In this document: positions 16,075-33,687 of the stretch, piece after piece
Numbering within the stretch: the stretch's first letter is position 1
Layout: each line of letters begins with the position of its first letter
Source of the DNA: a virus
Strand: one strand, 5' to 3'
IMG/VR virus record: IMGVR_UViG_3300024262_000019
Span: 46,163-110,162 of that record
Length of the DNA stretch: 64,000 nucleotides
Position numbers and translations under genes: made by a program
Notes under the pieces: generated by a model
The model's input: the letters and a program-made list of their open reading frames with translations, nothing else
Told to the model about the DNA's origin: nothing
Databases searched by the model: none

Positions 16075-18894
16075 TCATCTTCCTGGCATGCCCATCTTTA
16101 TCTCATTGATAAGCTGCCCTAACTCACCAAGACGCCTGGCTGTTTCATTGTTGGCGCCCATAATCGTATCTAGGTTGTCCTCAACCATTTTTTCGTGATC
16201 ACGGTTTCCTTGGAATAATTCCTTCTCAGTTATTGGCCTATATCCGAGTTGCTGTCTCATTTGTGGCCATCTGCTGGACAGACCCCCAGCAGTACGTATT
16301 GAATGACGTAGATCTTCGGCAGCCTGAGTACTTCCACCCATCACTCCTGCCATTTGTTGCTGAGCTGCAGCTTGTTGGGTTTGGATCTCAGCTTGGGCAG
16401 CCTGCTGTTGGATCTGTCCCTGGTTTTGAACATCCATTTGCAGACCCATCGCCCTTGCCTGAATCTCTGCATCACTCAACTGCTCCTGGTGACGCTCTTT
16501 GATGATGTATTCGATCTCTTCTTCGCTAAGTCCAAATACTTTCTGGAGAATCCAATGCAGAGAGACGAACTGCTGCATTCGCCCGGCGAAGTCTGCCTTG
16601 GCATTCCTGACCTCTAGCTGAGCAAGTTCGAAAATCGAACTCGGCGTCGTCATGCAGATTTCAAAATCGACTGCGGCTGGATTGATATTCAGAGCAGCCA
16701 GGTGAACCCTGGCCATCTTCTTCATCCCGTTCCTCAGTTCGCGCTGTAAACGAAGGACAGTACGGGCAAATCGCACATCCTCCTGAGACAGCACACCCTT
16801 GGCACGCGGAGCCTCCGACCCAAGATAGACCTTGGGCACCTTGATAGCCGCGTAGAGCTTCAGCTTGAAGTACTCGATATCCTCCATGTGCTGCCACGAC
16901 GGGCTGCCCACGACATCGATTTTGGTCTGCTGCACACCCTTGCGAACAGGGACGAAGAAGTCCTCATCCTGTGACAGGGGATTATATTTCAGATCAAGCT
17001 TGCCGGTCTGGGGATTATAGAACTTGGTCTTCTTGTACTGCTGACGGATCTTATGCAGGAATGCCATTGCCTCTTTTGGCGGCATATCTCCGACATCTAT
17101 ATAGAAAGCATACCGCTGAGGGGCTCGCTGCAGCCTGTAAACCATGGCCGCATCCTCAAGAAGCATAAGCCTCTTCCAGATCCACCTGGCCGGCTCAAGC
17201 ATCGAGTAACCGTAGATAGACCTACGATGCCTGGAGCGCATCCGGAAGTGTGCAACCTCCCAATCCTCCAGGGCGGCGTACTTATCCTGCGTCTGAGACC
17301 CAGCACCAGCCATGCGTTGCGTCAGAAGTTGCTTAAACTCATCCGGGCTGTACCCGAACCTGCCCTTGTAATCCTGGACAAACCCAAATAGCTCGCCTCG
17401 ACGACCTTCGATTCGTCGCATCGTAGGTGGTGGCAAGAAGTTCAAGCCAACCAACCCGTCCTGCGTAACCAGAAGCTCTTCGTAGTCGTTTCCGTACTTT
17501 ACTAAGGTTCTGGCTATCTCCCAGATTTCCTCATCCATACGAAGCCTACGCCAAAACAGATCTTCTAGAATCGTCTGGACTGTCTTGTCTGGACTGTCAA
17601 TCCAGACCGCCCTGTTCTGCAAGGACTCCGTCTGAGTGGCGTCATCGGCATATATGTCAATAGCACTGTTATGAACAACAACTCCGTTACATACGAAGTT
17701 GTGATACCCAGGCACCTCCAGGTCAAAAACCTCAGGTCGCTCATCCAGCTCCTCAACCCTAACCACTCTGTGGTTATTATCGTCCTCGATCAGGTCATAC
17801 CTGTCCAGGTTGCGCCTAGCGGTGCTCCATGAAACGTCAAGTATCCTTGCGGCCTCGGCAATGGTACCGCCAGAGGCATAGGCAGACTCAACCTGTTCCC
17901 GGCTCAGATCGATACGGTGTGCATCCCCTATTCTCTGTCGATGTATCGGAGATAGCGGCTTACCGCTGCGTGCCTCCGACTTACGTCGTCGAGTTTCAAG
18001 TGACTCACTCTTACCTTTCTTGTAAGAATTTCCAAGCATAGCCTTGGATTTTTCCATTCGCCGCTGAGCAGTCCACTCAGGTAAATACTCTGAATTATCA
18101 ATCTTAGCGATATGATGGAGCGCATGACTGGAGAAGCTCTCGACGCTTAGATTTTCAGGAGAGTTGTTGAGTTTATTTTCATCAATGTGATGAACGACGT
18201 CGCCAATTCCAGCGCCCATAAACCGCTCGCCAACAATCCTATGAACCCACGTCCATCGCTTCCCATCGGACGACCTGATCGTCGAGTCTGAATTTGGCTG
18301 ATGAACTTCCCAGTACGGATCTGCGGCACAGCTATTCAGAGATCTCGTCCGCAAGACGCCGGGCATCAAACGTTGACCAGTAGCGAGTTCGCCGGCCTGC
18401 ACCCACTTCTCATCCTTGGTGAAAAATAGATGGTCAGAGGTGCATACAATCTCCTGGCCGTTATCAAAGATAACCCTAACCATCTTCTTGGCATGACCGG
18501 CCTGTCCTGTAGCCCTAGCATTGCAAGCCCTTGCTGGAACCAATGACTTAGATTCCCTGTCATATGACAGGACATGGAAGTCACCGCCACGACTAGCCAG
18601 ATCCTCGATCCTCTCCCACCCGTATTCGAGTGTGAAAACACGAGAATCGCCATGCAGGCACGACAGCTCCGGGTAGTCGTCCATCTCCTCGTAGTCCACA
18701 AACCTAGCCATAAGGTCGTGTTCAAGCTTGAGGTAATCAGATAGGACGTCATGCCCATAAGCCTGAAGAAGATCGAATCCAGTCTGTGGATATCCCGACG
18801 CAGTTCCGCCCTTGGCAAGGTTAAGAACTACCTGTTCTTTATCCCAACGAAGTAGCCCACGGACCTGATGTCCAACATTTCCCCAGAATCCCAC
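16075..18894 (-). CDS. Portal protein (T4 gp20-like) containing an intein
   Basis: YEEMDDYPELS/SAIDIYADDAT, YGYSMLEPARWIWKRLMLLEDAAMVYRLQRAPQRYAFYIDVGDMPP, EDFFVPVR, EDIEYF, EDVRFART. Confidence 0.95.
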   Translation of the reverse strand: MGFWGNVGHQVRGLLRWDKEQVVLNLAKGGTASGYPQTGFDLLQAYGHDVLSDYLKLEHDLMARFVDYEEMDDYPELSCLHGDSRVFTLEYGWERIEDLASRGGDFHVLSYDRESKSLVPARACNARATGQAGHAKKMVRVIFDNGQEIVCTSDHLFFTKDEKWVQAGELATGQRLMPGVLRTRSLNSCAADPYWEVHQPNSDSTIRSSDGKRWTWVHRIVGERFMGAGIGDVVHHIDENKLNNSPENLSVESFSSHALHHIAKIDNSEYLPEWTAQRRMEKSKAMLGNSYKKGKSESLETRRRKSEARSGKPLSPIHRQRIGDAHRIDLSREQVESAYASGGTIAEAARILDVSWSTARRNLDRYDLIEDDNNHRVVRVEELDERPEVFDLEVPGYHNFVCNGVVVHNSAIDIYADDATQTESLQNRAVWIDSPDKTVQTILEDLFWRRLRMDEEIWEIARTLVKYGNDYEELLVTQDGLVGLNFLPPPTMRRIEGRRGELFGFVQDYKGRFGYSPDEFKQLLTQRMAGAGSQTQDKYAALEDWEVAHFRMRSRHRRSIYGYSMLEPARWIWKRLMLLEDAAMVYRLQRAPQRYAFYIDVGDMPPKEAMAFLHKIRQQYKKTKFYNPQTGKLDLKYNPLSQDEDFFVPVRKGVQQTKIDVVGSPSWQHMEDIEYFKLKLYAAIKVPKVYLGSEAPRAKGVLSQEDVRFARTVLRLQRELRNGMKKMARVHLAALNINPAAVDFEICMTTPSSIFELAQLEVRNAKADFAGRMQQFVSLHWILQKVFGLSEEEIEYIIKERHQEQLSDAEIQARAMGLQMDVQNQGQIQQQAAQAEIQTQQAAAQQQMAGVMGGSTQAAEDLRHSIRTAGGLSSRWPQMRQQLGYRPITEKELFQGNRDHEKMVEDNLDTIMGANNETARRLGELGQLINEIKMGMPGR
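17668..18660 (-). mobile_element. Intein (331 aa) in the portal, carrying an HNH endonuclease, NUMOD3-like motifs and an HTH
   Basis: Starts CLHGDS, block B CTSDH, ends VFDLEVPGYHNFVCNGVVVHN/S; internal HRIV...VVHHIDENKLNNSPENL. Confidence 0.93.
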
Positions 18895-21387: not shown

Positions 21388-21689
21388 TACCTGCGTGCCC
21401 TCTTAGCGTCATTCTCAAGCTTCTCAAGCTGCCTAAGTGCGGCATCCAGTCTTCGGAACAGACTTCTCAGCTTGACGCGAGCGCCTTGAATGTTTCCCTT
21501 AGCCAGCGATCTACTCAGCTGCAACATCATCGTTCCATTGATTTGCATCATCTGAGCAAGTGCAGCCGTCTGACTAGCTGGAACCCTGAACGATGGAGAT
21601 GGAGGCTCCCAGGACTCATCGATATCGTCGTACATAACGACATGCTCAGTGAGTCCGCGTATTTCTCTCTTGAAGAATCCCATGTTCAC
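21387..21689 (-). CDS. Hypothetical protein
   Basis: 100-aa ORF overlapping the TerL stop. Confidence 0.5.
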   Translation of the reverse strand: MNMGFFKREIRGLTEHVVMYDDIDESWEPPSPSFRVPASQTAALAQMMQINGTMMLQLSRSLAKGNIQGARVKLRSLFRRLDAALRQLEKLENDAKRARR

Positions 21690-24600
21690 CCCTGCAGGAA
21701 CGGCAGCATAATCGTATCGTCTTCAACCATCTCCCGCTGCTCCTCTGCCTCTGGATTGGAGAAGTTGGATATGCCTTTAATAACACCCATAGGAGATCCG
21801 TGGTAGCTGGTCGTCAAGCTGTACGTGATACCAGCCAATGCATCAGACACATCCTTACTGCCGAGGCGAGGATGATCAACCTTGTTGCGCACGTTATCTC
21901 GTTGAATCGACTTAAGCTCATCGAGCAACGGCTTGTAGTCATAGAAGCTGATGCGGTTCTCGTAGATCGCAGATTTCAAAACATCGTAGGCATCCATCGG
22001 CTTATCCACCGACAGCCTCTCGGCGGTGATGCCCTTCTTTGAGAACTTCTGAAGAGAGTCTGCTGAATTGAATTGATCCATCGTGACCAATCCAATTGAG
22101 AATCCGTAATGCTGGAATTGGTAAACGAGGGCTCTGATCATTCCATAGTCAATCTCCCCGCCGATCGGAGGGTTGATACGAAGCAGCATATCTACCCAGA
22201 CCCTAGGAGCTGGCTCTGTATATTGCTCCTGGGTCTCCGGGTCTCTGCGAACAATCGTCTTGTACCCAGTCACGCAGCCGATAGCAAAACCAGTCGAATC
22301 TGAGTTAAGTGATGGATCGATATGCACATGCCTGGCTAGCCCTGGGTAGAACTTAGGCTGCCATATCTGACTCATGCTAGCGCCTTCTCTGACGCTCACC
22401 TGCTTCGCCAGCTTCGTCCAATTGACACTTCCGCCGTCTGTTTGAACCCACTCCTCGACACTGAATGGATGCGACCTGTTCACATCGATACATGGGACGA
22501 TTTTGTCTAGCTGCTGAATGAAAGGAGAAACGGATACGGTCGCAATACCAGCAACGTCTCGAATCGAGTCTTCCAAGTTGTTATCAAAATCGTTCCTATA
22601 GTCGATAGGAACATCAACGATAACCATGCCCTCCTGGAGCTTCTCGCGGACCGCTTCCACCTCATCTGGCTCAAGTATCTTACTCGGCACCAGGTCATTG
22701 CCGACTAAAACGGAGAACATCTCCTCCGACAGGGTCCCTTTTGGCTTCACATGCCAGGTTGCATAGTCACGGACGAATAGCGTCGGATCGTCGGCTGATT
22801 CTTTAATCCTCTTGGCAGTAAAGTCATCCCTGGTCTGCTTAGAGGAAACGACAAGCATCATACCTGGAAGCTTGCCGTGCTTCTGGAATCGAGACTTCAT
22901 ACGACGCATCAGTTGGTCGTAGAGAAACTGAGCCCTGTCTCCACCGCCGAAACGGCTCTCCATGCCACCCTTCTTCTTCATGGGTGCCATGAAGTTAGAC
23001 TCGTCGATCATCGCCGCAAAAACGTTGAGACCAAGTGCCGCACTATCGGTCGATGCTCGCGCAGCAACCTGAACGTGGTTAGGGAATTGGATCTCCTTCT
23101 TGAGCGGCTTGTATGGAAAGTTCTCCATAAAATAATCGCTCTCTTTGATTTTGTTTACGATGTTCTCGAAGGCAACCTTAATCGCAAGGTCCTCCTTGAC
23201 CGACAGGACGATCAGCGTGATGTCAGATCCTTTACCGATGCCAAAGCTCTTGTGCGGATCTCGCATGCAGGACAGCTCATATAGAATCCTGCAAGCAGCT
23301 ATAGACGCGAAAAATGTGTTGTGAATAATGATGCCGTTAGCGACAGCATTCTCCGTCCCTGGAACAGTCAGGTCGTAAACATCATGCCATCCGATGTCAT
23401 CGATAGATTCGATACGCTCCCACACGACGTCCATATCAGCGAACTTGCGATACTCCCCCTGGTAACTCGTACTTCTACATAGCCTCTGGAATTTGTCGCG
23501 ACCCATGCAGGAGCCCTTAGCCAGGGCCCCGCCAGCATCATTCCACTCCTTATTGGTATGAGGACCAGTCTCCCTGCGGATGACCTTCAGCTCCTCTGTC
23601 GTTATCGGAACCAGGTCCCAGTTTGGATTGCCCTTGGTCGCTGACGCCTGAGCCAGCAACTTATCGCACTTAGACTCCTTGCCAGGGATTTTCCCAATGA
23701 ACTCAAGAAACCTAAGCTGCATTGGTGCATCGGCAATCTGAAGTCGCCATGCGTCGAACCACTCCTTGGTCCCATCATCCTGTTTAATAGACTTCTTATG
23801 GTGGCTCTTTCTGGCGACGACCCCGAATCGCCTTAGCAAATACTGGACATCGTCAATGAGCCCCTCGCTGGCGAGCGCAATTTCAATCTTACGAGGACTT
23901 CCCGTGTAAACGTTCCCATCCGTAAACAAGCGATTCAGAAACAAAGCAAGCTGGCGGCTGTTCAACCCAAAGAACTTAGCCGGAACGCGCTTCTCTTTGG
24001 ATAGGCAATCTATTCCAAGGCTACGCACCCAGTCCATGGCCCCTCGCACAGTCGTATACCAGGCACCGCGATCATATTTCTCACATCCGAATCCATCGAA
24101 CCCTGGGATGTGCTCAGCACATAACTTGAAGTCGCCAACAACTTCCTCGTCGCCTTTGATATAGACGCAGGAATTCGCAGTCAAGGAACCATCGGCAATC
24201 AAATAGGCAGCCACTTTGACGCACTCATCGGTAATCTCCAAAGTTGCAATCGGCTCAGGAACAGAGCGAGCGGCAGCCACAAAGCTGCCCGGTGCCAGGT
24301 CGAGTAGTGGCACATACCCTATTGGAGTAAGAACAGGGTGATCCTTACTTGCCTCCAGGTATTGTCCAGAGGCAAGGGTCATACGGAAGCACTGCTTGTG
24401 ACCACACTTCCAAATCTTGGATGGGGGTCGATGCGCGATCTCATTGCCATCAAGAGACGGAACCAGCACATCACGGTCCACGGCCTCTTCGATTGTCATT
24501 CTTCTCCCCGATACACCATCAACAAAAGAAGTCGTCGCTACGACCGATTTTCCCCATCCGATGCTGTTATGTACTTGAAATCCTTCACAAAAAAACGAAT

Positions 24601-25330
24601 TACCGTTAGGTACACCGATGTCTCCGACCTCAATCGTTCCGCCATCCCCTAGACCGTCAATACGAGCCCAGCCATCACTGGCAGTTCTAACGAAATCCTC
24701 CCCGGGAACAACATCTTTCGCCTCAACCCACCCACGACGAGTCATCACTTTATGCTCGGGTGTCAGGCGCAGGCTGGCCCCGTTGCTTACTGTAATCCTG
24801 ACAGTGTCGCGCACCCCTGAGTGCCTGGCTTCGATAGTTTCAGCAAAGCCGACCTTACCATCTGGATATGCAAGGACTCTTGGGGAGTCGCCGCTTGCAT
24901 CGAGGATCTGCCTGAGAGATGTGACCACTCCACCCTCCGCAACAATGCTTGCATCCAGATCTACACACCCCGTGAGAACTGCCTCACCGTAGTTGCCGCT
25001 GAACAGCTCCTTCATGTCCTCCTTGAGCTTTGGATAGAGCACATCGCATGTCTTCCCTAGGTAGTAGGGATCCATTACGAAGGTCTCAATATCCACCGGT
25101 CTTGTCTTGAACTCAGCCTCATTGAGAACATCTATGATCCTTGGAGGCCCCTCCTCTCCTTCGACCATCTGCAGTTCATTAAATGCCGGGTCGTCCATCT
25201 CCTTGAGGCACAGCAAGACCGCCTCCCTCTCCTCCGGGGAAAGACTATCGAACTCATCCTTGAGAAGCTTGACCACCTCCTCCGGGGTCTGCTCGCTACG
25301 AACGCGACCACCTAAATCCCTGATCGCCAT
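21686..25330 (-). CDS. terL: Terminase large subunit with two inteins (about 670 aa after splicing)
   Basis: Spliced Walker A AVLTGSIGWGKT, Walker B AMIDES, nuclease motifs HVHIDPS, VTMDQF, KVDHP..GSKDVSDALAG. Confidence 0.93.
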   Translation of the reverse strand: MAIRDLGGRVRSEQTPEEVVKLLKDEFDSLSPEEREAVLLCLKEMDDPAFNELQMVEGEEGPPRIIDVLNEAEFKTRPVDIETFVMDPYYLGKTCDVLYPKLKEDMKELFSGNYGEAVLTGCVDLDASIVAEGGVVTSLRQILDASGDSPRVLAYPDGKVGFAETIEARHSGVRDTVRITVSNGASLRLTPEHKVMTRRGWVEAKDVVPGEDFVRTASDGWARIDGLGDGGTIEVGDIGVPNGNSFFCEGFQVHNSIGWGKSVVATTSFVDGVSGRRMTIEEAVDRDVLVPSLDGNEIAHRPPSKIWKCGHKQCFRMTLASGQYLEASKDHPVLTPIGYVPLLDLAPGSFVAAARSVPEPIATLEITDECVKVAAYLIADGSLTANSCVYIKGDEEVVGDFKLCAEHIPGFDGFGCEKYDRGAWYTTVRGAMDWVRSLGIDCLSKEKRVPAKFFGLNSRQLALFLNRLFTDGNVYTGSPRKIEIALASEGLIDDVQYLLRRFGVVARKSHHKKSIKQDDGTKEWFDAWRLQIADAPMQLRFLEFIGKIPGKESKCDKLLAQASATKGNPNWDLVPITTEELKVIRRETGPHTNKEWNDAGGALAKGSCMGRDKFQRLCRSTSYQGEYRKFADMDVVWERIESIDDIGWHDVYDLTVPGTENAVANGIIIHNTFFASIAACRILYELSCMRDPHKSFGIGKGSDITLIVLSVKEDLAIKVAFENIVNKIKESDYFMENFPYKPLKKEIQFPNHVQVAARASTDSAALGLNVFAAMIDESNFMAPMKKKGGMESRFGGGDRAQFLYDQLMRRMKSRFQKHGKLPGMMLVVSSKQTRDDFTAKRIKESADDPTLFVRDYATWHVKPKGTLSEEMFSVLVGNDLVPSKILEPDEVEAVREKLQEGMVIVDVPIDYRNDFDNNLEDSIRDVAGIATVSVSPFIQQLDKIVPCIDVNRSHPFSVEEWVQTDGGSVNWTKLAKQVSVREGASMSQIWQPKFYPGLARHVHIDPSLNSDSTGFAIGCVTGYKTIVRRDPETQEQYTEPAPRVWVDMLLRINPPIGGEIDYGMIRALVYQFQHYGFSIGLVTMDQFNSADSLQKFSKKGITAERLSVDKPMDAYDVLKSAIYENRISFYDYKPLLDELKSIQRDNVRNKVDHPRLGSKDVSDALAGITYSLTTSYHGSPMGVIKGISNFSNPEAEEQREMVEDDTIMLPFLQG
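23318..24547 (-). mobile_element. Intein 2 of TerL (410 aa, LAGLIDADG endonuclease, Ser1)
   Basis: GK/SVVATTS...ASKDHPVLT...AAYLIADGS...FLNRLFTDG...VYDLTVPGTENAVANGIIIHN/T. Confidence 0.9.
24566..24967 (-). mobile_element. Mini-intein 1 of TerL (134 aa, no endonuclease)
   Basis: G/CVDLDAS...LTPEHKVMTRRGW...VGDIGVP..NSFFCEGFQVHN/S. Confidence 0.9.
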
Positions 25331-26104
25331 CTACTCCTCCGTATCTGGCGGTGGCGTGGCCTCATCCTCGGGCGATGGCGTGGTCTCATCCTCTACATCT
25401 ATGATGTCTGGGGCAGCTTTAGCTGCATGCATGACAACATTTACGGCATCGATACTAGCCCTGTCACTGAGAACCGACAGTGCATTGACCATACTGAGAA
25501 CCTTGCGACGACTATCCGGATCAGCCATAACGCTTCCCACGCCCTCGTTGTATCGATTGCCTATCTGAACGGAGGCATGGCCAGTGACGGACATCTCGCC
25601 AAGCTGGCGTTTAGCAATACCTAGATCCATCTTCAGATCTGCGCTCTGTTTAAGAAGCTTCATCGCATAGAAGATCTCTCGACCGGTCTGAGGGAGAAGC
25701 TTTTTGATCTTCAACTCATTGGTCATCTCTATTTCGATACGCTTGAACTGCTTTTTATATAGCTCCTCAAGCTCCTCAAGCTCATTCAATCCGTTGGACA
25801 ATCTCTTGTTAGCCTGCATAACCACAGCGGCATTCTGACTAGTGAGAGCCAGCTCGGCTGGCGGGATGGCCCGGCGATATTCGTCTATCATCTTGCGCAC
25901 ATAGTTAGCGCTAAGGTGGGTAAGCTCCTGGCTTTCATCCTGAATGAACTTAGTCAAATCAGATGCCGACCAACCCATCCTCAGGCGGCGATCTACCTCC
26001 TCGAAGCACCTGCAGTCTTTCAGTGCTGCCGCTTTCTTCTGCTCGCGGCTTACCGGACGAACTGGTGGTCTACGAGTCTTTTTATCTGCCATGAGTCGCT
26101 CCAA
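25331..26104 (-). CDS. Putative terminase small subunit
   Basis: Abuts terL; N-terminal helical DNA-binding-like region plus coiled coil. Call rests on position. Confidence 0.45.
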   Translation of the reverse strand: MERLMADKKTRRPPVRPVSREQKKAAALKDCRCFEEVDRRLRMGWSASDLTKFIQDESQELTHLSANYVRKMIDEYRRAIPPAELALTSQNAAVVMQANKRLSNGLNELEELEELYKKQFKRIEIEMTNELKIKKLLPQTGREIFYAMKLLKQSADLKMDLGIAKRQLGEMSVTGHASVQIGNRYNEGVGSVMADPDSRRKVLSMVNALSVLSDRASIDAVNVVMHAAKAAPDIIDVEDETTPSPEDEATPPPDTEE

Positions 26105-26183
26105 AGATATGGTAGTTGCGACTCAGAGACTAGCCTATTAGGGCGTTTACCTCAATAAAGCTAATTGTAGGATCTACTTAGCA

Positions 26184-26200
26184 ACGCAAGCGCTTGCGCA
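26184..26200. repeat. Dispersed palindromic site TGCGCAAGCGCTTGCGT; this copy is reversed, other copies at 49366, 58124 and 62316, core only at 34005
   Basis: 14-bp perfect palindrome CGCAAGCGCTTGCG with conserved flanks. Confidence 0.85.
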
Positions 26201-26201
26201 C

Positions 26202-27614
26202 CTATATGATGAATTCAATTCCATCCGGGATCTTACCCTGGACAGTCTTTTGAAAATCGAAATTCTTTCCAATTGCAGAAGTCATAATCTGAGATGTTGT
26301 TTGAACGATCTTACCGATACGACCATCCTCGACGCCATACCCGCGCCGTAACGGCACAAGAACGCTACGAATGTAGTCCGTAGATCCTGAAACCATACCC
26401 TCTACATCCGTCTCAAGAAAAACAGTTCTAGCTATCATGTCTGCAATATTGGGGACCGGGATACCAATCTCCATCATTACCTGGATAAGCAACGTCGCGA
26501 CACCCTCGCCAAACCCATCCGTCATCTGCTTTGTGGTCATAACCATCTCTTCACGCTCTCGCTCCGTGAAGGTTCCCATGAGCGCTATACTATCAGCGCC
26601 GACCGGCGGAGATCCATTGGATGGCTCCTCCAGTGGTCCCGAGAACTTACGACCCCAACCCTTCTTGCGCATCGCAAGATACCACTCTGCGGTAAGCGCA
26701 GAGCTAGGAAAAGACAGGCCAAATCCATATAACGCCAAGGAATCCGAAGACCTGTTGTATGCGTAATCACACAGCAATCTACTTGGTACGCCAAGTATGA
26801 AGTCGATCAGTATGGCGCGATAAATGGAATGCCTCAGCCTACTGGAAGATGTCTCCCATCGATTCGTGTCGTCTGGACCGAGCTTCGCCCAATACTCAGC
26901 GAAATTCTCAGCATTAAACGGCAGGGCCTGCAGTAAGCCAACCGTACCAAATGTCTCATCTACCAATGTTGGCGCAATCCTCAGGCGACGCCCCACCCGC
27001 TCTCTGACGGCGTCGGATATGAGTGGAACCAGATTTACTTCTTTTGCTGAAATCGGTGGTGCTATGTCTTCGCACCCCATAGCCTTCATAGCTTCGTAGG
27101 CGGCCTGCTCCCTCCTGATAGGAGCATACTCATCATCGACGCCATACGTGGCACCCATGGCCTCGCTGACGCTCGTATTGGCTAATGCTGGAAAGCGCAG
27201 GAGTCCACTTTTGACCTGACCGTCGAAGTTTCGGTACCTCGCCCATAGGTTTCCGCTAGCACCTCCGAGGACCCGCTCCTCAATATGCTCAATAGATGTC
27301 GTGCGGAGCCAGTCCCAGAGAATGGGTTCTGGCATATTCCACGGAGGATCAATGGTTGAACCATCGAACCTCTTCGATGGGATCATCAGTATCCCTGTCT
27401 TTTTATGATAGACAGGAGCCTGTGGGAGGGTCTCGGCTACATACGCCGACTGCTCTGCCTTGGCTTTCTCAGCAGCCTCAGCATCACGTCTGCTAGGCTC
27501 CGGGGGCTCATGAGAGAGAGCCCCAAAAACACTACTTAGCTTCGCTATTGTTTGGTTGGGCATCGACGACGTTAACCTCTGGTAAAGTTTCAACCAGATC
27601 GGCTGCCTTGCCAA
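26202..27614 (-). CDS. HipA/PI3K-PI4K-like kinase-fold protein, catalytic residues degenerate (copy 3)
   Basis: RREQAAYEAMKAMG..IAPP, GLLQ, IDFILGVPSRLLCD, LYGFGLSFP against family pattern RExAAY..., D...NxDRHxxN, IDHGxSF. Confidence 0.7.
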   Translation of the reverse strand: MARQPIWLKLYQRLTSSMPNQTIAKLSSVFGALSHEPPEPSRRDAEAAEKAKAEQSAYVAETLPQAPVYHKKTGILMIPSKRFDGSTIDPPWNMPEPILWDWLRTTSIEHIEERVLGGASGNLWARYRNFDGQVKSGLLRFPALANTSVSEAMGATYGVDDEYAPIRREQAAYEAMKAMGCEDIAPPISAKEVNLVPLISDAVRERVGRRLRIAPTLVDETFGTVGLLQALPFNAENFAEYWAKLGPDDTNRWETSSSRLRHSIYRAILIDFILGVPSRLLCDYAYNRSSDSLALYGFGLSFPSSALTAEWYLAMRKKGWGRKFSGPLEEPSNGSPPVGADSIALMGTFTEREREEMVMTTKQMTDGFGEGVATLLIQVMMEIGIPVPNIADMIARTVFLETDVEGMVSGSTDYIRSVLVPLRRGYGVEDGRIGKIVQTTSQIMTSAIGKNFDFQKTVQGKIPDGIEFII

Positions 27615-27831
27615 GATACTGGAACGCCGACCTTAAGTCATCTACCTCTGCGGAATACGCCGATGAATAACCTCCGACCTTATGCATGGCACTGTGCAGA
27701 CCTGAGTGACCAAGATTTTTATCACCCATGGAGCCATCGCCATAGAGCGTCCTGGACTTAACTGCGCCATCCTCGTTCCACATGACACGTCGAACTCGGC
27801 CCTCATCATCGAAAACAAATACGACATTCAT
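27532..27831 (-). CDS. Small partner protein C (precedes kinase copy 3)
   Basis: 99 aa; WNEDG...LYGDG resembles WQAEDGGLYGTG of partner A. Confidence 0.6.
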   Translation of the reverse strand: MNVVFVFDDEGRVRRVMWNEDGAVKSRTLYGDGSMGDKNLGHSGLHSAMHKVGGYSSAYSAEVDDLRSAFQYLGKAADLVETLPEVNVVDAQPNNSEAK

Positions 27832-27835
27832 GGTG

Positions 27836-29020
27836 TTATTCCCCAGGCCTAACGCTTAGTTGAGAAAGTGTGCCTTCTAATCCGTGGGCGAGCATCATCT
27901 TTGCTCTTTCCTTAAGAAATTCAGCATCTTCCTTGGAAACATTCATCTGATCTGAACCAGCCATATGCTCTCCGGCAGCAAGCCGTTTGAGCGTCTCCTT
28001 CATCCTTGGTGGATAGTTCATACCTACATCGTCTGACCTATTAGCGCGATAGTCAAGCTTCCCACCAGGAGCATAGGCTGAGACCACCGCATGACGACCC
28101 TCCTGCTCTGCCTCTTGCTTGGAATGTGCGGAGGCCATCGAACTGTCATGATCGATCGCAACTGAGTGCGTATTTGGTCCAGCTTTGCTCACTAGAACAT
28201 TGCCAGAGTGAGCATCTGTATGGCCAAAAAGCGTATGCATTACGATGCCATGCATCCTATCCTCGTCACTTACCTTGGCCAAATCTGCCGGCGAAGCGAA
28301 CTCTGCTTTGTCATGCGCACCGATGTGCTCCTGAACATGAGCATCACCGCCGGCATGACTCGATGGCATCCGCATAGCCTTTGCCGCAGAGTCCTGATCA
28401 TCTGGAGCCATACCACTGCTTAGGTGGCCATGAATCTTTGATTCGATACCAACGGGAACCATATGATGAGCACCCATGGAAGACATGACGTCATAAACCG
28501 CCTGATGCCTACGACCCCATTCGTGAGGTTCAGCGCCAGCAGACCAGTCAGCCCGATGCTCATCTGGGATATCTCCGCCACTCGGGCTCTTAGTATACCC
28601 CCAGGCAGCACCCTTGTGAGGCTTGGCAATGTATCCAGGACCATTCTCCAGATTGCCGTGAAGCACCACATTCCCAGAGCCACTCTTGTGACGAATTTTA
28701 TTCTTGCCAGTAGTGACCGTACGAGCACCCTTAGCATGGTACGCACCACTGAATGCGTTTACTCTTGATGCGGCGTCCGACAGATCTGGCCTAGCCCTTG
28801 AGGCAAGACTTGGCTCAGAGTGCGGAATTTCGTTAGGGGTACTACCAGTCCACGATGACTTCTGCTGAGATGGTGCAGGCGGACCCTCGGCGACCTTCGG
28901 TTGAATCACAGTAGACTTTCTAACCGGCACAGTCTTCTGCTCTTCGTATAGGTCCCTTGGCGGATTCCTGAGCAGATCCATTGTTGATAGCCATCTAGCC
29001 ATCGATAACCTCCACATCAA
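27836..29020 (-). CDS. HipA/PI3K-PI4K-like kinase, catalytic loop intact (copy 2)
   Basis: YIAKP (ATP Lys), RRHQAVY, LFGHTDAHSGNVLV (DxHxxN), VAIDHD; low-complexity N-terminal leader. Confidence 0.78.
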   Translation of the reverse strand: MMWRLSMARWLSTMDLLRNPPRDLYEEQKTVPVRKSTVIQPKVAEGPPAPSQQKSSWTGSTPNEIPHSEPSLASRARPDLSDAASRVNAFSGAYHAKGARTVTTGKNKIRHKSGSGNVVLHGNLENGPGYIAKPHKGAAWGYTKSPSGGDIPDEHRADWSAGAEPHEWGRRHQAVYDVMSSMGAHHMVPVGIESKIHGHLSSGMAPDDQDSAAKAMRMPSSHAGGDAHVQEHIGAHDKAEFASPADLAKVSDEDRMHGIVMHTLFGHTDAHSGNVLVSKAGPNTHSVAIDHDSSMASAHSKQEAEQEGRHAVVSAYAPGGKLDYRANRSDDVGMNYPPRMKETLKRLAAGEHMAGSDQMNVSKEDAEFLKERAKMMLAHGLEGTLSQLSVRPGE

Positions 29021-29255
29021 CCATCGGACTCATCAACAACCTCTGCAGGAGCAACTCCAGTGGAGATATTCCTAGGCGACTAGCACGAATTTGCATGTCC
29101 TCTAGCATGAGAGGAATAACGCCATCCCATAGCCCGGACACTTTTATATCGCCTGCCACCTGCCAAATGTCAGCGCCCTGGGAAGACCTAAGCTCACCGT
29201 TGGCGATGTCGATCCTATTCACTCTTAGGCGCCTGGTATCAGGAACGCTTGTCAT
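28995..29255 (-). CDS. Small partner protein B (precedes kinase copy 2)
   Basis: 86 aa; aligns with partner A (RRLR, WQ, ML, SPL, R...SP, EVI). Confidence 0.7.
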   Translation of the reverse strand: MTSVPDTRRLRVNRIDIANGELRSSQGADIWQVAGDIKVSGLWDGVIPLMLEDMQIRASRLGISPLELLLQRLLMSPMVDVEVIDG

Positions 29256-30876
29256 CCTTGTGCTCCGATTTCATTTTTTTAACGAAAGAAAAATCCCCAA
29301 CCAATGCATTCTGCATAGTCTGGTCAACGAACTCCTCTATACCCTTCATCTCGTCCGGGACGTTGCCCTGTAAGATCTGCGCGTAGTATCTAGCAGCAAA
29401 ATACGGATCTCTGGCGATGTCACCGGAGTGTGTTGCCAGCATCCACATCCTACTTAATGCACCGCACACCTGTAGGGCGCTGAGCTTCCTATCTATAAGT
29501 GCTCTCGCAAGCTCCCTAGACCTATCACCACGCATGCGCGATGCGATGTCCTGTCCAATCTCCTCAAACACCTTAATCTCTTCATCTCCGCCGCGAACGA
29601 CCAGCATAGTCATAATGTCATTCCACATCAGCGCTTTACCAGTTGCCGGGTCAGCGACGACATCCCCATATGCACCGACTCCCGACTCCATGTATCTCTT
29701 TCCGATTCTGGCTGGGCACGGAAGAGACATCTCATTTCCATATGCGATAACCGGATGACTTTCGTTGTCACAGAATGCAATGTCGCCAAAACTTCGATCG
29801 AGATTCCACACAACAAAATCAAACACAGCTAGGCGAAGAAACGATATCCTTCGATCCGGTGGCATGGTTTCCCATATCCGATTTAGGACATCTGTCCTCT
29901 CTTCGCTTCCGTTACTTTCAAAAATCGACTTGAACCATTCCTCGCCGTCTATGGTCCACAGCTGATCTCTAACGAATTGTACCGTAGCGTAGCCTCCGAG
30001 CCTCTTACGCACATTGTCTGGATCGTCACCGGTCTCGCGGGCTACCCAGTCTACTAGCACCTCCCTCCTCTCTATCAAGGAGTCTGGGAGCACCGAAGTT
30101 AAGTCTCCATCATCGTCGAATCTACTAATCGTAGGAGGAATAACATCGTCGAGCCCACAGGACTTTGCCACCTCATATGCAGATGCCGCTCTCACTGACA
30201 GATCGCCACCCTCTTTCAGATTGACCAAATCTCCCCATATTGAATGGATAACAGGATCTCTTAGAGACTCAATCCATAGGTAGGCGCTAAAGGAGCCTCC
30301 GCGATGAGACTCAATGCGAGCGAGCATAGATCCGCTGCCCGGTTTGACGACTGTCATTTTGCGAACAGTGCCAGATCTGAGGTCATTAAGAAGGTCTGGC
30401 TCATCGACACCCCATAGCACTCTATCTGTTGGGAGAACCGAAGCTATGGCTATATTTAGAGGACCGGGATCTATAACCTGCAACGCTCGGTTGCCTTTGT
30501 CATACCTTCTTCTAAGCTCAGCTGGGACCGGATCTTCCTCCTCGGCAGCTGACTTCGTCGTCTTCTTAATCCAGGCAATATCGTAATAGCGAACTGACAT
30601 CCTAGTAGGCAATGGCTCAGGCTGCGCTGCGACCACACCAGCCTGGGCTGGAGCTATGGCAGGCTGAAGCATTGGGCCATTCTTACCCTTGCTAACAGAA
30701 AGAGGTTGAATGGACGAATCCCTGCCTGTCTTAGATGCATACTCGTCGTTTGGGTTTGCCTTCTTGACATGAAACGCCTGCTTAACGACCTGCGTTCCAC
30801 CATCGGGAGATCTGCGACGAACCTTTTTTATGACTCTAACTAGGCTCGCACCGAACTGTTCATATATATCACTCAT
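29239..30876 (-). CDS. HipA/PI3K-PI4K-like kinase-fold protein, partly degenerate (copy 1)
   Basis: VRAASAYEVAKSCGLDDVIPPTISR, ATVQFV, AVFDFVVWNLDRSFGD, IAYGNEMSLP. Confidence 0.75.
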   Translation of the reverse strand: MSDIYEQFGASLVRVIKKVRRRSPDGGTQVVKQAFHVKKANPNDEYASKTGRDSSIQPLSVSKGKNGPMLQPAIAPAQAGVVAAQPEPLPTRMSVRYYDIAWIKKTTKSAAEEEDPVPAELRRRYDKGNRALQVIDPGPLNIAIASVLPTDRVLWGVDEPDLLNDLRSGTVRKMTVVKPGSGSMLARIESHRGGSFSAYLWIESLRDPVIHSIWGDLVNLKEGGDLSVRAASAYEVAKSCGLDDVIPPTISRFDDDGDLTSVLPDSLIERREVLVDWVARETGDDPDNVRKRLGGYATVQFVRDQLWTIDGEEWFKSIFESNGSEERTDVLNRIWETMPPDRRISFLRLAVFDFVVWNLDRSFGDIAFCDNESHPVIAYGNEMSLPCPARIGKRYMESGVGAYGDVVADPATGKALMWNDIMTMLVVRGGDEEIKVFEEIGQDIASRMRGDRSRELARALIDRKLSALQVCGALSRMWMLATHSGDIARDPYFAARYYAQILQGNVPDEMKGIEEFVDQTMQNALVGDFSFVKKMKSEHKDDKRS

Positions 30877-31182
30877 CTAATCCTCTATGACCTCGGAGCG
30901 AAGGAACGGACTCCTGGAGATGCGAGCATGGAATACGGCCAATGGACTCATGTCGGCAGCAATTGATGACATGTGGTATCTAGCCGAAGACACCGGCTCA
31001 AATAGCATCACGGCAGCAACTCCGGTTCCGTATAGGCCACCGTCCTCTGCCTGCCACACTTCACCGACTACGGAATGATCACTTCCAGTCCCAGGATCTA
31101 CACTGTAAATCCTAAGCCTTCTCTCATCTCCAACGATGTCATCTGGCTGCAACTCAATTGCAGGTGATCTGTCGTCTTCCAT
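30877..31182 (-). CDS. Small partner protein A (precedes kinase copy 1)
   Basis: 101 aa, abutting both neighbours; paralogous to partner B. Confidence 0.7.
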   Translation of the reverse strand: MEDDRSPAIELQPDDIVGDERRLRIYSVDPGTGSDHSVVGEVWQAEDGGLYGTGVAAVMLFEPVSSARYHMSSIAADMSPLAVFHARISRSPFLRSEVIED

Positions 31183-31183
31183 A

Positions 31184-31960
31184 CTAGAACTCCAAACCTA
31201 AGGCCGCATCCGTGATTGCCTCTTCGATGATCTCGTTGATGTCAACCTTCTTAGATCTTGAGGCTCTAACAATTCTCTTCATTGCCTCCCTAGTCTTATC
31301 AGACATCGCAACATAGATGTGCTCCTTGCCGCCCCAGGTGAAGACGAGGAAACTGTACTGAGCGGTATCACCGCTGTCGGACATGAACCTCTGAATGATC
31401 TTATCTAGATCTCCAACAGTCCTAGCCTCCTTGGCTTGCTTTCCAAATTCATCAGCCAGCTCAGCGGACATCGACTTCTTGATGTCGCCCTTAACCTGTT
31501 TGATCAGCTTCTGAAGCCCAGAGTCGTCTGTGTAGCCAAGCAGCTGCACAGCTTCGTCTCCATACTTCTTGGCCATCTCATTGTAAATAGCGACCATTTT
31601 GTCGGGATTCATCTTCCCGTGAAGAACATTGGACCTGACATTCTGAAGCTTCCTAAGATCTTCCTCCTGCCACTTGTCGCCCTGGAGAACGTCCACTGGG
31701 ATGCGCTTGAGACCAAGTGCCTTTGCAGCAGCAGCGCGATGGTGGCCGCTGACTATCTCGTAGTAAGTTGAACCATCTTCTCGCTCAACATGGGCCACGG
31801 TTGGCGGGTCGATGAACCCAACCTTCTTGATCGTCTTCTTGAGGAGCGCGAACTCCTCCTCGGTCATCTCATTCGGATTCCACTCAGCGCCAACTAGTTC
31901 ACCTGGGCTGACAGTGATTCTCTCGACATCCATCTTCTCGGGAGAGATGTCTGGCATCAT
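31184..31960 (-). CDS. ParB/Srx N-terminal domain protein
   Basis: WNPNEM...IKKVGFIDPPTV...YEIVSGHHRAAAAKALGL. Confidence 0.85.
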   Translation of the reverse strand: MMPDISPEKMDVERITVSPGELVGAEWNPNEMTEEEFALLKKTIKKVGFIDPPTVAHVEREDGSTYYEIVSGHHRAAAAKALGLKRIPVDVLQGDKWQEEDLRKLQNVRSNVLHGKMNPDKMVAIYNEMAKKYGDEAVQLLGYTDDSGLQKLIKQVKGDIKKSMSAELADEFGKQAKEARTVGDLDKIIQRFMSDSGDTAQYSFLVFTWGGKEHIYVAMSDKTREAMKRIVRASRSKKVDINEIIEEAITDAALGLEF

Positions 31961-32172
31961 GAGTCCAAAGCCTCAGCGATGGCCATGAGCCTTTCCGCAG
32001 CCAACAAGATCTCACCTCGAAGCTGATACTGCCAAATCTCAATATTGATATCATTGGATGGCAGCTCGTCGCCCGGAATGCCGGCTTCGAGCTTCTCCTT
32101 CTGCCTACCAAGAAGAGACAATACCTGATCTATTTCATCCCGGAGTGTGTCCGGCTGGAGACGCATGGTCAT
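31957..32172 (-). CDS. Hypothetical protein
   Basis: 71-aa ORF with ATGA overlap. Confidence 0.5.
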   Translation of the reverse strand: MTMRLQPDTLRDEIDQVLSLLGRQKEKLEAGIPGDELPSNDINIEIWQYQLRGEILLAAERLMAIAEALDS

Positions 32173-32210
32173 GCCGCCAGTCTAACTATCTAGCTGTAAT
32201 TAGGCTACTC

Positions 32211-32981
32211 CTAAACAGTGAGACTTTCTCTTGAGTCCACGCTATCCGGCTCATCGCGAAGATAGGCATGCCAGATCTCCTCGGTTAGAATCGTAACCCT
32301 ATTCTTCTCTAGCGAATCCAAGATTTGAGATCGGTTATGTCGGCGAAAATCCCAGCATCGCTTGCAGAGCCCATCCCCGGAATGCCTAGTTCTCTCATCG
32401 CTGCCGCTGGCACCGCATAGCCTGCAATTATCCAGATCATAGTGAAGTGACCACTTGCGCTTCTCGGTGCGAAGATAGCTGGTTATCTCCTGCACCTGGT
32501 CAAACGTAATCATGTACTTCCTGAGCCCGTACCGCTTCCAGGTCTGTTTTATAGCGTCTCGGGCTCTCTGTATCTGCCGCCAATCATACCCAGTCTCACG
32601 CTCAATCTGGAGCCTCGTATAGGTACCCTGCGTTGGCGAGAAACCCAGCTCGTAGCATCGCCTCTCTATCGCCAGTCGATTACGTCTGATGAGCTGATCC
32701 ATCAACTCGAATATGCTCAGATGGCCGACATTCTTCATTAGGATCAGATCCTCATCCTTGGACCAAGGATAGGTAATTCTGCCAGGTCTACAGCCAGCTC
32801 GTTTACCCTTCTCGTCCCTGATGTTGAGATCGGTAGCCTTTGCCCGAACAGCCTGAACAGTCTTACCAAGGATAGCCGCTACCTCTGAGTCACGCCTAGT
32901 TCCCCAAAGCTCGCGAAGCTTACCCTCCTCATCGGCAGTCCAGCGAGACCTTTTACGTCTTGTACCGGATGATTCCCCCAT
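32211..32981 (-). CDS. Myb/SANT-like repeat DNA-binding protein with C-terminal Zn finger
   Basis: RWTADEEGKLRELW and PWSKDEDLILMKN repeats; CRLCG...HSGDGLCKRC. Confidence 0.65.
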   Translation of the reverse strand: MGESSGTRRKRSRWTADEEGKLRELWGTRRDSEVAAILGKTVQAVRAKATDLNIRDEKGKRAGCRPGRITYPWSKDEDLILMKNVGHLSIFELMDQLIRRNRLAIERRCYELGFSPTQGTYTRLQIERETGYDWRQIQRARDAIKQTWKRYGLRKYMITFDQVQEITSYLRTEKRKWSLHYDLDNCRLCGASGSDERTRHSGDGLCKRCWDFRRHNRSQILDSLEKNRVTILTEEIWHAYLRDEPDSVDSRESLTV

Positions 32982-33102
32982 TGGTGGAGTCTAAAGGGTA
33001 ATTAAAATCCATGCAAATATTTGCAATGAGTATAAACAGCTAAGCCCCCGGAGATACCTAAGTATCGATCCGAGGGCTTACCCTTGGTATCAAGGTCTAA
33101 GT

Positions 33103-33687
33103 CTATGCAACTTGGTCTTGATAGTTCTCAAGCATCTCAGAGATCGCAATGCTATTCCCGGCAATAACACCAAGGATAGCCTTCCAAGCCCACTGAGCCT
33201 GGAATTCCGTAGGAGCAAACGTCTCTTTCCAGAACGTAGCGATTTCCTGCTCCCTCTCCGACGCATAGGCAAGAAGAAGACCCTCTTCTGCCGTAGGCAT
33301 CTGCTCGCCCATCATAAGAAGACCCTCCAGTGCCATGATATTACACATGGCAATGTACGGACCCTTGTTACACTTCACACCCATGGTCTTCGTGGGGTCG
33401 CCAAGTTCATACGCCTCAATCCCATTGAGATGGCGACCTTCGCGCATAATGCTGAAATAAGCAGGCTTCCAGAAGGAAAGAGCCTTCTCGACCTTAGAAC
33501 GAGGGATAAGCGCCTTGTTGGTCAAGGCGGCATCGCCATTGGCCGATGCCTTGCGCTGCTCAATTATCTCCCAGAGACGTCCCAGCTCAACTGGATCCAT
33601 ACTCTGTCCTGCCGTCGTAGGCACCTGACTTCTTCCGACCTGCCCAATGGGAAAGCCATCTGCTCCTAGTAATCCACTACTCATCAT
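33103..33687 (-). CDS. Hypothetical protein
   Basis: 194-aa ORF with GGAG RBS; hairpin follows at about 33040-33080. Confidence 0.6.
   Translation of the reverse strand: MMSSGLLGADGFPIGQVGRSQVPTTAGQSMDPVELGRLWEIIEQRKASANGDAALTNKALIPRSKVEKALSFWKPAYFSIMREGRHLNGIEAYELGDPTKTMGVKCNKGPYIAMCNIMALEGLLMMGEQMPTAEEGLLLAYASEREQEIATFWKETFAPTEFQAQWAWKAILGVIAGNSIAISEMLENYQDQVA

Follow-up and report, generated by a model that had tools for sequence, protein, structure and literature searches.

A block of six genes, A-K1-B-K2-C-K3, was analyzed in a 64,000-nucleotide stretch of viral DNA (IMG/VR record IMGVR_UViG_3300024262_000019, positions 46,163 to 110,162; hereafter the window), which comprises the last 64 kb of a 110-kb contig with a CheckV completeness estimate of ∼67%. 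In this block, which like nearly all genes of the window lies on the minus strand (31182-26202), open reading frames (ORFs) for small and large proteins alternate, and a prediction made from the sequence alone (the original prediction) had described it as three copies of one unit consisting of a small protein and a HipA/PI4K-like kinase. Our results confirm six tightly coupled ORFs next to the terminase genes at the predicted coordinates, but show a different unit structure: a tandem duplication, A-K1 plus B-K3, with a separable, faster-evolving and dispensable cassette, K2-C, nested between B and K3. Judged by its sequence, K2 is a catalytically intact kinase resembling the type II phosphatidylinositol 4-kinases (PI4KII) and the only one of the three large proteins with all catalytic positions. 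K3 is classified as a pseudokinase on the same grounds, and K1 very probably lacks canonical kinase activity, though this is less certain than for K3. As an explanation of the block as a whole we favour, at a little under an even chance, duplicated pseudokinase pairs accompanied by a K2-C cassette in which K2 acts as a host-directed protein kinase.

Unit structure of the block

The revised unit structure is based on paralogy, on the loss of K2 and C in one lineage, on the evolutionary rates of these two genes and on the limits of a recombination block, taken together. As originally predicted, A and B are paralogs (BLAST E 7e-5; hhalign probability 98%, E 3e-13 over 79 columns). K1 and K3 are paralogs as well (hhalign probability 100%, E 2e-42 over 365 columns, K1 155-542 and K3 92-465), K1 having an additional N-terminal region of ∼150 aa. 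C had been proposed to share the motif W.EDG...LYGxG with A, but the hhalign probability is below 2% for C against A and against B alike. Clear paralogy by sequence is thus restricted to A/B and K1/K3, and K2 and C stand outside the repeat, so that the proposed triplication could not be upheld.

One related locus, L030 (a 42-kb contig, ∼32% complete), has the order ParB-A-K1-B-K3-TerS-TerL, and K2 and C are found nowhere on the contig. Here B immediately precedes K3, the stop codon of B overlapping the start codon of K3 (TAATG). Since L030 is sister to the six-gene locus L007 with a support of 1.0 in a tree of concatenated ParB, TerS, g256, K1 and K3 sequences, the absence of K2 and C is best read as a clean joint secondary loss.

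K2 and C are also the fastest-evolving pair, at about twice the rate of their neighbours. Between the window and its closest relative, L001, the nonsynonymous divergence (dN) is 0.30 for K2 and 0.29 for C, compared with 0.12-0.15 for A, B, K1 and K3 and 0.07 for TerS. In the comparison of L005 with L006, the only one in which the synonymous divergence (dS) is not saturated, dN/dS amounts to 0.33 for K2, 0.69 for C and 0.15-0.17 for B and K3. The same two loci differ in a mosaic manner: nucleotide identity is 0.84-0.97 within B-K2-C-K3 (L005:9636-12872) against a background of 0.66-0.80, and dS is 0.22-0.35 inside this segment and >1.6 in the flanking A, K1, ParB and TerS genes. The edges of the segment fall at the K1/B junction and the end of K3, B recombining along with K2-C-K3 and not with K1. 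This mosaic indicates that B-K2-C-K3 was recently exchanged between lineages by recombination.

Fold and active sites of K1, K2 and K3

Searched directly against PDB sequences, K1, K2 and K3 gave chance-level matches only. The structural models of K2 (calculated with 24 relatives; pLDDT 83.3, pTM 0.81) and K3 (with 40 K3 and K1 sequences; pLDDT 85.8, pTM 0.85) display a complete bilobal protein-kinase-like fold, and Foldseek searches with both returned protein-kinase-like structures exclusively. The top match of either model is the lipid kinase PI4KII, followed by Fam20 (12-15), actin-fragmin kinase (11-14), CtkA/CotH (10-13.5), PI3K/PIKK (∼10-11) and HipT/HipA (9-10.7). K1 is assigned the same fold because of its strong homology to K3, and all three proteins are thus modelled as PI4KII-like atypical kinases. 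The HipA/PI4K-like label of the original prediction holds at the level of the superfamily for the K2 and K3 models, but PI4KII is clearly closer than HipA.

In K2 the catalytic residues are Lys133 (IAKP), Asp269, His271 and Asn274 (DxHxxN, present as TDAHSGN) as well as Asp290 and Asp292 (IDHD); residue numbers follow the longest ORFs (K1 545 aa, K2 394 aa, K3 470 aa). A column tally found K133, D269, N274, D290 and D292 to be invariant in all 34 K2-family sequences, in agreement with the prediction that only K2 keeps every catalytic position. The other catalytic-site motifs quoted there are likewise present (IDH in K2, NLDRSFGD/AYGN in K1, VPSRLLCD/LYGFG in K3). Against Pfam PF00454, K2 reaches 14.1 bits (cut-off 27.1; E 0.046) over the catalytic loop only, and weak matches occur in 22 of its 24 relatives (best E 9e-6); K1 and K3 do not match this family. 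The K2 profile finds PI4KIIIbeta in the PDB at E 0.18 only, again over the catalytic loop. K2 contains no cysteine and hence lacks the palmitoylation motif of PI4KII. By hhalign, K2 aligns with K3 around helix alphaC (probability 51%, E 1.5e-4), while its alignment with K1 is collinear through the motifs and not significant alone (probability 4-7%). The nearest viral structures to K2 in BFVD are phage "PI3K/PI4K catalytic domain" proteins, and its larger neighbours there include a portal protein (1201 aa), proteins with a head-morphogenesis domain (1020 and 1140 aa) and a mycobacteriophage ADP-ribosyltransferase (1340 aa).

K3 of the window has Ser278 in place of the catalytic Asp and Gly297 in place of the DFG-equivalent Asp. 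Among the 17 members of the K3 family, the first of these columns holds Asn (8), Asp (5), Glu (2), Ser (1) or Leu (1), the second Gly (8), Asp (6), Ala (2) or Ser (1). K1 keeps the catalytic-loop Asp (Asp360) and has Asp365 at the Asn position, Gly380 for the DFG-equivalent Asp and E382 at DFG+2. The catalytic Asp is retained in 19 of the 25 K1-family members, whose Asn position is mostly Asp; Gly takes the DFG-equivalent position in 16 of them and Asp in 5, and an acidic residue at DFG+2, which corresponds to the second invariant Asp of K2, is found in 20. Since a few distant K1 orthologs (e.g., P0031) retain the full D...N...D set, the ancestors of K1 were probably active. Over 40 K1 and K3 sequences the invariant residues look structural (Y-E..K of alphaC, the Asp of LDF, the Arg of DR); in K3 numbering, E79, K160, D254 and R262 are invariant and R151, E157, D166, R249 and R379 nearly so. 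K1 and K3 thus combine a kinase fold and degenerate catalytic columns with dN well below dS and retention in all genomes seen, as expected of pseudokinases. The predicted arrangement of one intact kinase and two pseudokinases therefore stands for K2 and K3, but is less clear-cut for K1 with its catalytic-loop Asp.

A short peptide is conserved at the N terminus of each of the three proteins and leads into a low-complexity linker modelled with low confidence. T4-type signals for the prohead protease or for capsid targeting could be seen in the [LIV]-x-E motifs at the N termini of K1 and K2, but with so short a motif this stays speculative.

Small proteins A, B and C

Orthologs of A are located immediately upstream of K1 in every full-length locus. 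Near its C terminus, C has the conserved motif AEVDDLRSAFKYLGKA.DL.ETLP. Searches of Pfam, PHROG and PDB sequences found no relatives of A, B or C, and A/B and C are by this measure orphan small-protein families; an Atlas search with C gave no usable match. Fused, longer forms of A or B were sought and not found, which is weak evidence. All six genes are separate ORFs in every locus, and no fusion to virion proteins was seen. Prediction of a B+K2 complex gave an ipSAE of 0.00 in both runs, which speaks neither for nor against binding; this is probably a non-cognate pair, K3 being the likely partner of B under the revised unit structure.

Distribution and conservation

The block belongs to large phages of an uncultured clade whose capsid genes are T4-like and whose contigs reach ∼200 kb. 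The order ParB-A-K1-B-K2-C-K3-TerS-TerL is present in all sufficiently long contig loci from IMG/VR and JGI except L030, namely in eight viral-contig loci (seven distinct, the tables of L002 and L003 being identical) and in L038, the most divergent locus with the full order (∼38-48% protein identity). Every metagenome fragment of sufficient length shows the order as well, at protein identities down to ∼38%. The gene order, for which conservation in related contigs had been proposed as a check, thus recurs at these levels of sequence divergence far more often than expected by chance. All six have diverged more rapidly than the TerS, TerL and ParB genes, and dN is far below dS for each of the six.

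The K1/K3 family comprises 35 representatives among 1.84 billion proteins, and 24 relatives of K2 were found. Searches of 50,697 phage records by blastn and tblastn gave no match to the region, to K3 or to K2, even at E 5, and a K3-family profile search of one genome each of 185,579 species revealed no relative. Besides the subsurface metagenome that is the probable source, runs labelled aquatic, marine sediment, seawater and just 'metagenome' contain short contigs that are 95-100% identical to positions 25000-32500 of the window and show no rearrangement joints across the block. Since near-identical contigs occur in four other studies, the phage or close strains of it appear to be widespread.

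Genomic context

The block sits between a ParB-like gene and the terminase genes, just upstream of the latter (Table 1), and its genes either abut or overlap by 1-32 nt. For K2, the longest ORF (27836-29020) starts from TTG, but the orthologs and the database call favour the ATG at 29002; for K3 (longest ORF 26202-27614, also from TTG) the orthologs favour the ATG at 27563.

Table 1. Genes and sequence elements in and around the six-gene block (window coordinates)
Feature	Position	Strand	Description and evidence
A	30877..31182	-	101 aa; paralog of B; opens unit 1; ORF and hhalign
K1	29239..30876	-	545 aa; predicted PI4KII-like kinase-fold protein, paralog of K3; hhalign, column tallies, per-sequence loops
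B	28995..29255	-	86 aa; paralog of A; opens unit 2; ORF and hhalign
K2	27836..29002	-	388 aa; predicted PI4KII-like kinase with intact catalytic residues
C	27532..27831	-	99 aa; not related to A/B
K3	26202..27563	-	453 aa; predicted PI4KII-like pseudokinase
Palindrome GCAAGCGCTTGC	26186..26197	.	5 nt past the K3 stop; kept in 11 related loci
ParB-like nuclease-domain gene	31184..31960	-	PF02195 E 8e-8; phrog_26387 E 8e-50; synteny
Putative small terminase subunit (TerS)	25331..26104	-	257 aa; abuts TerL; in all loci
Large terminase subunit (TerL)	21686..25330	-	1214 aa; phrog_17415

The ParB-like gene directly upstream of A, separated from it by 1 nt in the window, is a conserved flank. In one relative ∼530 nt separate the two genes (L013:827-1361), so their coupling is not universal. 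On the other side, a gap of 97 nt lies between the end of K3 and the TerS-like gene, whose product has phrog_35167 (function unknown) as its sole family match, no functional family being found. Genes for a portal protein, a prohead protease and a T4 gp23-like major capsid protein (MCP) follow downstream of TerL.

A scan of positions 25000-33500 for promoters and terminators detected nothing exceeding the shuffled expectation. At the position of the palindrome behind K3, an equivalent palindrome exists in 11 of 11 related loci. The window contains four further exact copies of GCAAGCGCTTGC (34005, 49369, 58127 and 62318), five in total, and variants at 18523 and 33013; a looser pattern finds 7 sites in the window against 0.9 expected. 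No T-run follows the palindrome. Because of its fixed place in the 11 loci and the five copies in the window, the palindrome 3' of K3 is probably a regulatory boundary element ahead of the terminase genes; it could form a hairpin in the RNA or serve as the operator of a dimeric DNA-binding protein.

Several genes of this clade vary in length. TerL has 1214 aa in the window, 670 aa in L001 (L001:13668-15680), 1463 aa in L006 (L006:13906-18297) and 1077 aa in L030 (L030:10789-14022), and over its exteins the window protein is 93% identical to the L001 ortholog; the extra length fits intein-type insertions that come and go. In the portal protein (window 16075-18894, 939 aa), a segment that precedes the portal domain (409-816) matches HNH endonuclease families (residues ∼205-381) and may be another mobile insertion. 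The gene at 32211-32981 (256 aa, a D5-like regulator PHROG) has an ortholog of 649 aa in L006 (L006:4581-6530), which suggests a further insertion in a conserved gene of the clade.

Possible function of the block

In the favoured explanation, K2 would act as a protein kinase on Ser/Thr (or Tyr) residues of host proteins, in the service of takeover or counter-defence, with C as its adaptor or regulator. K1 and K3, together with A and B, would be scaffold or substrate/target-binding subunits that have no catalytic activity, or at most a weak or atypical one, in a role that would not strictly depend on K2, since one lineage keeps them without K2-C at the locus. We infer a protein kinase because the structural neighbours of K2 other than PI4KII are mostly protein kinases, because the palmitoylation motif is missing and because phosphatidylinositol is, to our knowledge, absent from most bacteria. 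A host protein as the substrate is suggested by the fast evolution and dispensability of K2-C, as is often the case for host-interaction genes. Several points weigh against this explanation. The nearest fold to K2 is that of a lipid kinase, so that a protein substrate is presumed, and L030 is a fragment, in whose genome K2-C could lie elsewhere. K1 may not be inactive, given its catalytic-loop Asp and acidic DFG+2 residue. Furthermore, the relation of K1 and K3 to K2 is weak by sequence (hhalign probability 4-51%), the equivalent of the beta3 Lys cannot be placed in K1 and K3, where the local alignment is unreliable, and the block proteins stand alone rather than being fused to virion proteins. 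A more specific form, in which K1/K3 and A/B make up a stable core pseudokinase scaffold, possibly carried in the capsid, onto which an exchangeable, fast-evolving and host-phosphorylating K2-C docks, seems to us rather unlikely. If true, such a scaffold with an exchangeable cassette would be a phage counterpart of pseudokinase-assisted kinases (Fam20A/C, ROP5/ROP18) and the first pseudokinase-based system described in bacteriophage.

Other functions can be envisaged. If PI4KII, the top structural match of both models, also reflected the chemistry of K2, K2 would act on a host lipid or small metabolite, with K1 and K3 as membrane- or substrate-binding paralogs; the weak PF00454 matches of most K2 relatives agree with this, but the lack of cysteines, the scarcity of phosphatidylinositol in bacteria and the protein kinases among the remaining close folds make it improbable. 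About equally slim is the chance that K1 and K3 catalyze a non-canonical reaction at a relocated active site, as in SelO or SidJ. Strong purifying selection, the many invariant charged residues and the acidic DFG+2 residue of most K1 members would fit, although conserved charges can be purely structural or form interfaces, and K1 and K3 have no sequence similarity to SelO or SidJ. A kinase for morphogenesis or packaging, with K2 phosphorylating phage scaffold, capsid or terminase proteins and K1 and K3 serving as assembly scaffolds, is suggested by the position immediately upstream of TerS-TerL-portal-protease-MCP, by the retention of K1, K3, A and B in every genome seen, and by Fam20 and CotH, which acts in spore-coat assembly, among the structural neighbours. 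The loss of K2-C in one lineage and its doubled evolutionary rate are unlike a core assembly enzyme, however, and since the whole block also diverges faster than the terminase and ParB genes, we regard this function as quite unlikely.

Delivery of the block proteins with the virion is plausible by analogy because the block lies between ParB-like and terminase genes and because structural look-alikes in other phages are joined to portal and head-morphogenesis proteins. K1-K3, alone or along with A-C and the ParB-like protein, would then be packaged in the head, ejected with the DNA and active in the first minutes of infection, as free-standing equivalents of the kinase and ParB modules found in MuF- or portal-fused polyvalent proteins. 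Protein-kinase and DdrB-like ParB domains are indeed modules of polyvalent proteins that are packaged in the capsid, co-injected and encoded beside virion genes (Iyer et al., 2017, PMC5512222), and the BFVD neighbours of K2 and the conserved N-terminal peptide and linker of each K protein would also suit such a role. On the other hand, no virion fusions occur here, the polyvalent-protein kinases belong to a different family without a C-lobe, the N-terminal motifs are too short for significance, and the conserved palindrome sets the module apart from the terminase genes. We consider this a minor possibility, and one compatible with the favoured explanation, to which it would add delivery and timing.

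The original prediction had compared the block with HipBST systems, each small protein being a HipS-like split N-terminal subdomain that neutralizes the kinase downstream. We grade this analogy as unsupported by sequence and very improbable. There is no Couple_hipA or HipA_C (PF07804) match in 33 small-protein family members or in K1-K3, PDB profile searches returned neither HipS nor HipA, PF13657 finds nothing in the six frames of the genome, and hhalign to the E. coli HipA N-terminal region, with this single HipA sequence as the reference, gives a probability below 1%. The one hint in favour of the analogy comes from an Atlas search, in which the low-confidence model of A (pLDDT 0.57) hit two HipA clusters (TM 0.49 and 0.44) amid unrelated rows of equal score. 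PI4KII is a far better match than HipT and HipA (7ab3-5, 8ezs, 4pu3), the catalytic residues are gone from two of the three putative toxins, no HipB-like helix-turn-helix (HTH) gene lies in the block and none of the six proteins matches an HTH family, and C follows K2 instead of preceding it as a unit. The idea of three toxin/immunity-like pairs is thus disfavoured, and that of an undescribed phage kinase system was retained, no description having been found in our literature search.

Comparison with known systems

The closest fold to the proteins described here is that of the type II PI4Ks (PI4KIIalpha/beta; 4hnd, 4pla, 8a5x), at a sequence identity of 7-11%. These enzymes carry a cysteine-rich palmitoylation motif, in contrast to the cysteine-free K2, which stays below the PF00454 cut-off. 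The proteins of the block differ from them further in being phage-encoded, in the substrate of K2, which is probably not phosphatidylinositol, and in the missing catalytic residues of K1 and K3. HipBST, unlike the block, includes a HipB-like repressor, and its kinase is a much weaker match than PI4KII, without a HipA_C or Couple_hipA signal in the block. Two of the three kinase-fold proteins of the block are catalytically degenerate; moreover, A-K1 and B-K3 are duplicates here, and the small gene that co-varies with K2 follows it.

A pseudokinase-kinase pair is known from Fam20A/Fam20C (5yh3, 5wrs), where the pseudokinase activates the kinase as a heterodimer. K1 and K3 persist even where K2 is lost. 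Fam20 proteins are enzymes of the eukaryotic secretory pathway and have no counterpart of the small proteins A-C.

Like the polyvalent, MuF- or portal-fused cargo proteins, the block places phage kinase-fold domains beside virion and packaging genes with a ParB-like protein adjacent, and K2 structurally resembles the fusion proteins A0A6J5S481, A0A6J5RTG7 and A0A6B9L6W7 (Foldseek E 1e-6 to 3e-4). Unlike this cargo, the block proteins are stand-alone, and K2 and K3 are bilobal, whereas the kinase family of the polyvalent proteins lacks the C-lobe. The phosphorylation of host proteins by a phage protein kinase during takeover has a precedent in the T7 kinase gp0.7 (PMC5512222). This kinase belongs to a different lineage and is encoded by a single early gene that has no pseudokinase paralogs or small partners and does not lie beside packaging genes.

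Our literature search found no account of a conserved phage module that unites an active kinase with two pseudokinase paralogs and three orphan small proteins, and no paper on phages that conserve genes for kinase-fold paralogs whose active sites are degenerate. Already known separately are atypical kinases of the PI4KII-like type, kinases of phages and partnerships between pseudokinases and kinases, the known phage-encoded kinases being single enzymes such as T7 gp0.7. If our model is true, the block would add a new bacterial-virus family to the PI4KII-like kinases, along with three orphan small-protein families, and would provide a compact system for pseudokinases that act with or without an active kinase during infection. 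The K2-C cassette looks as if it were engaged in an arms race and could lead to a host target or a defence system that is switched off by phosphorylation.

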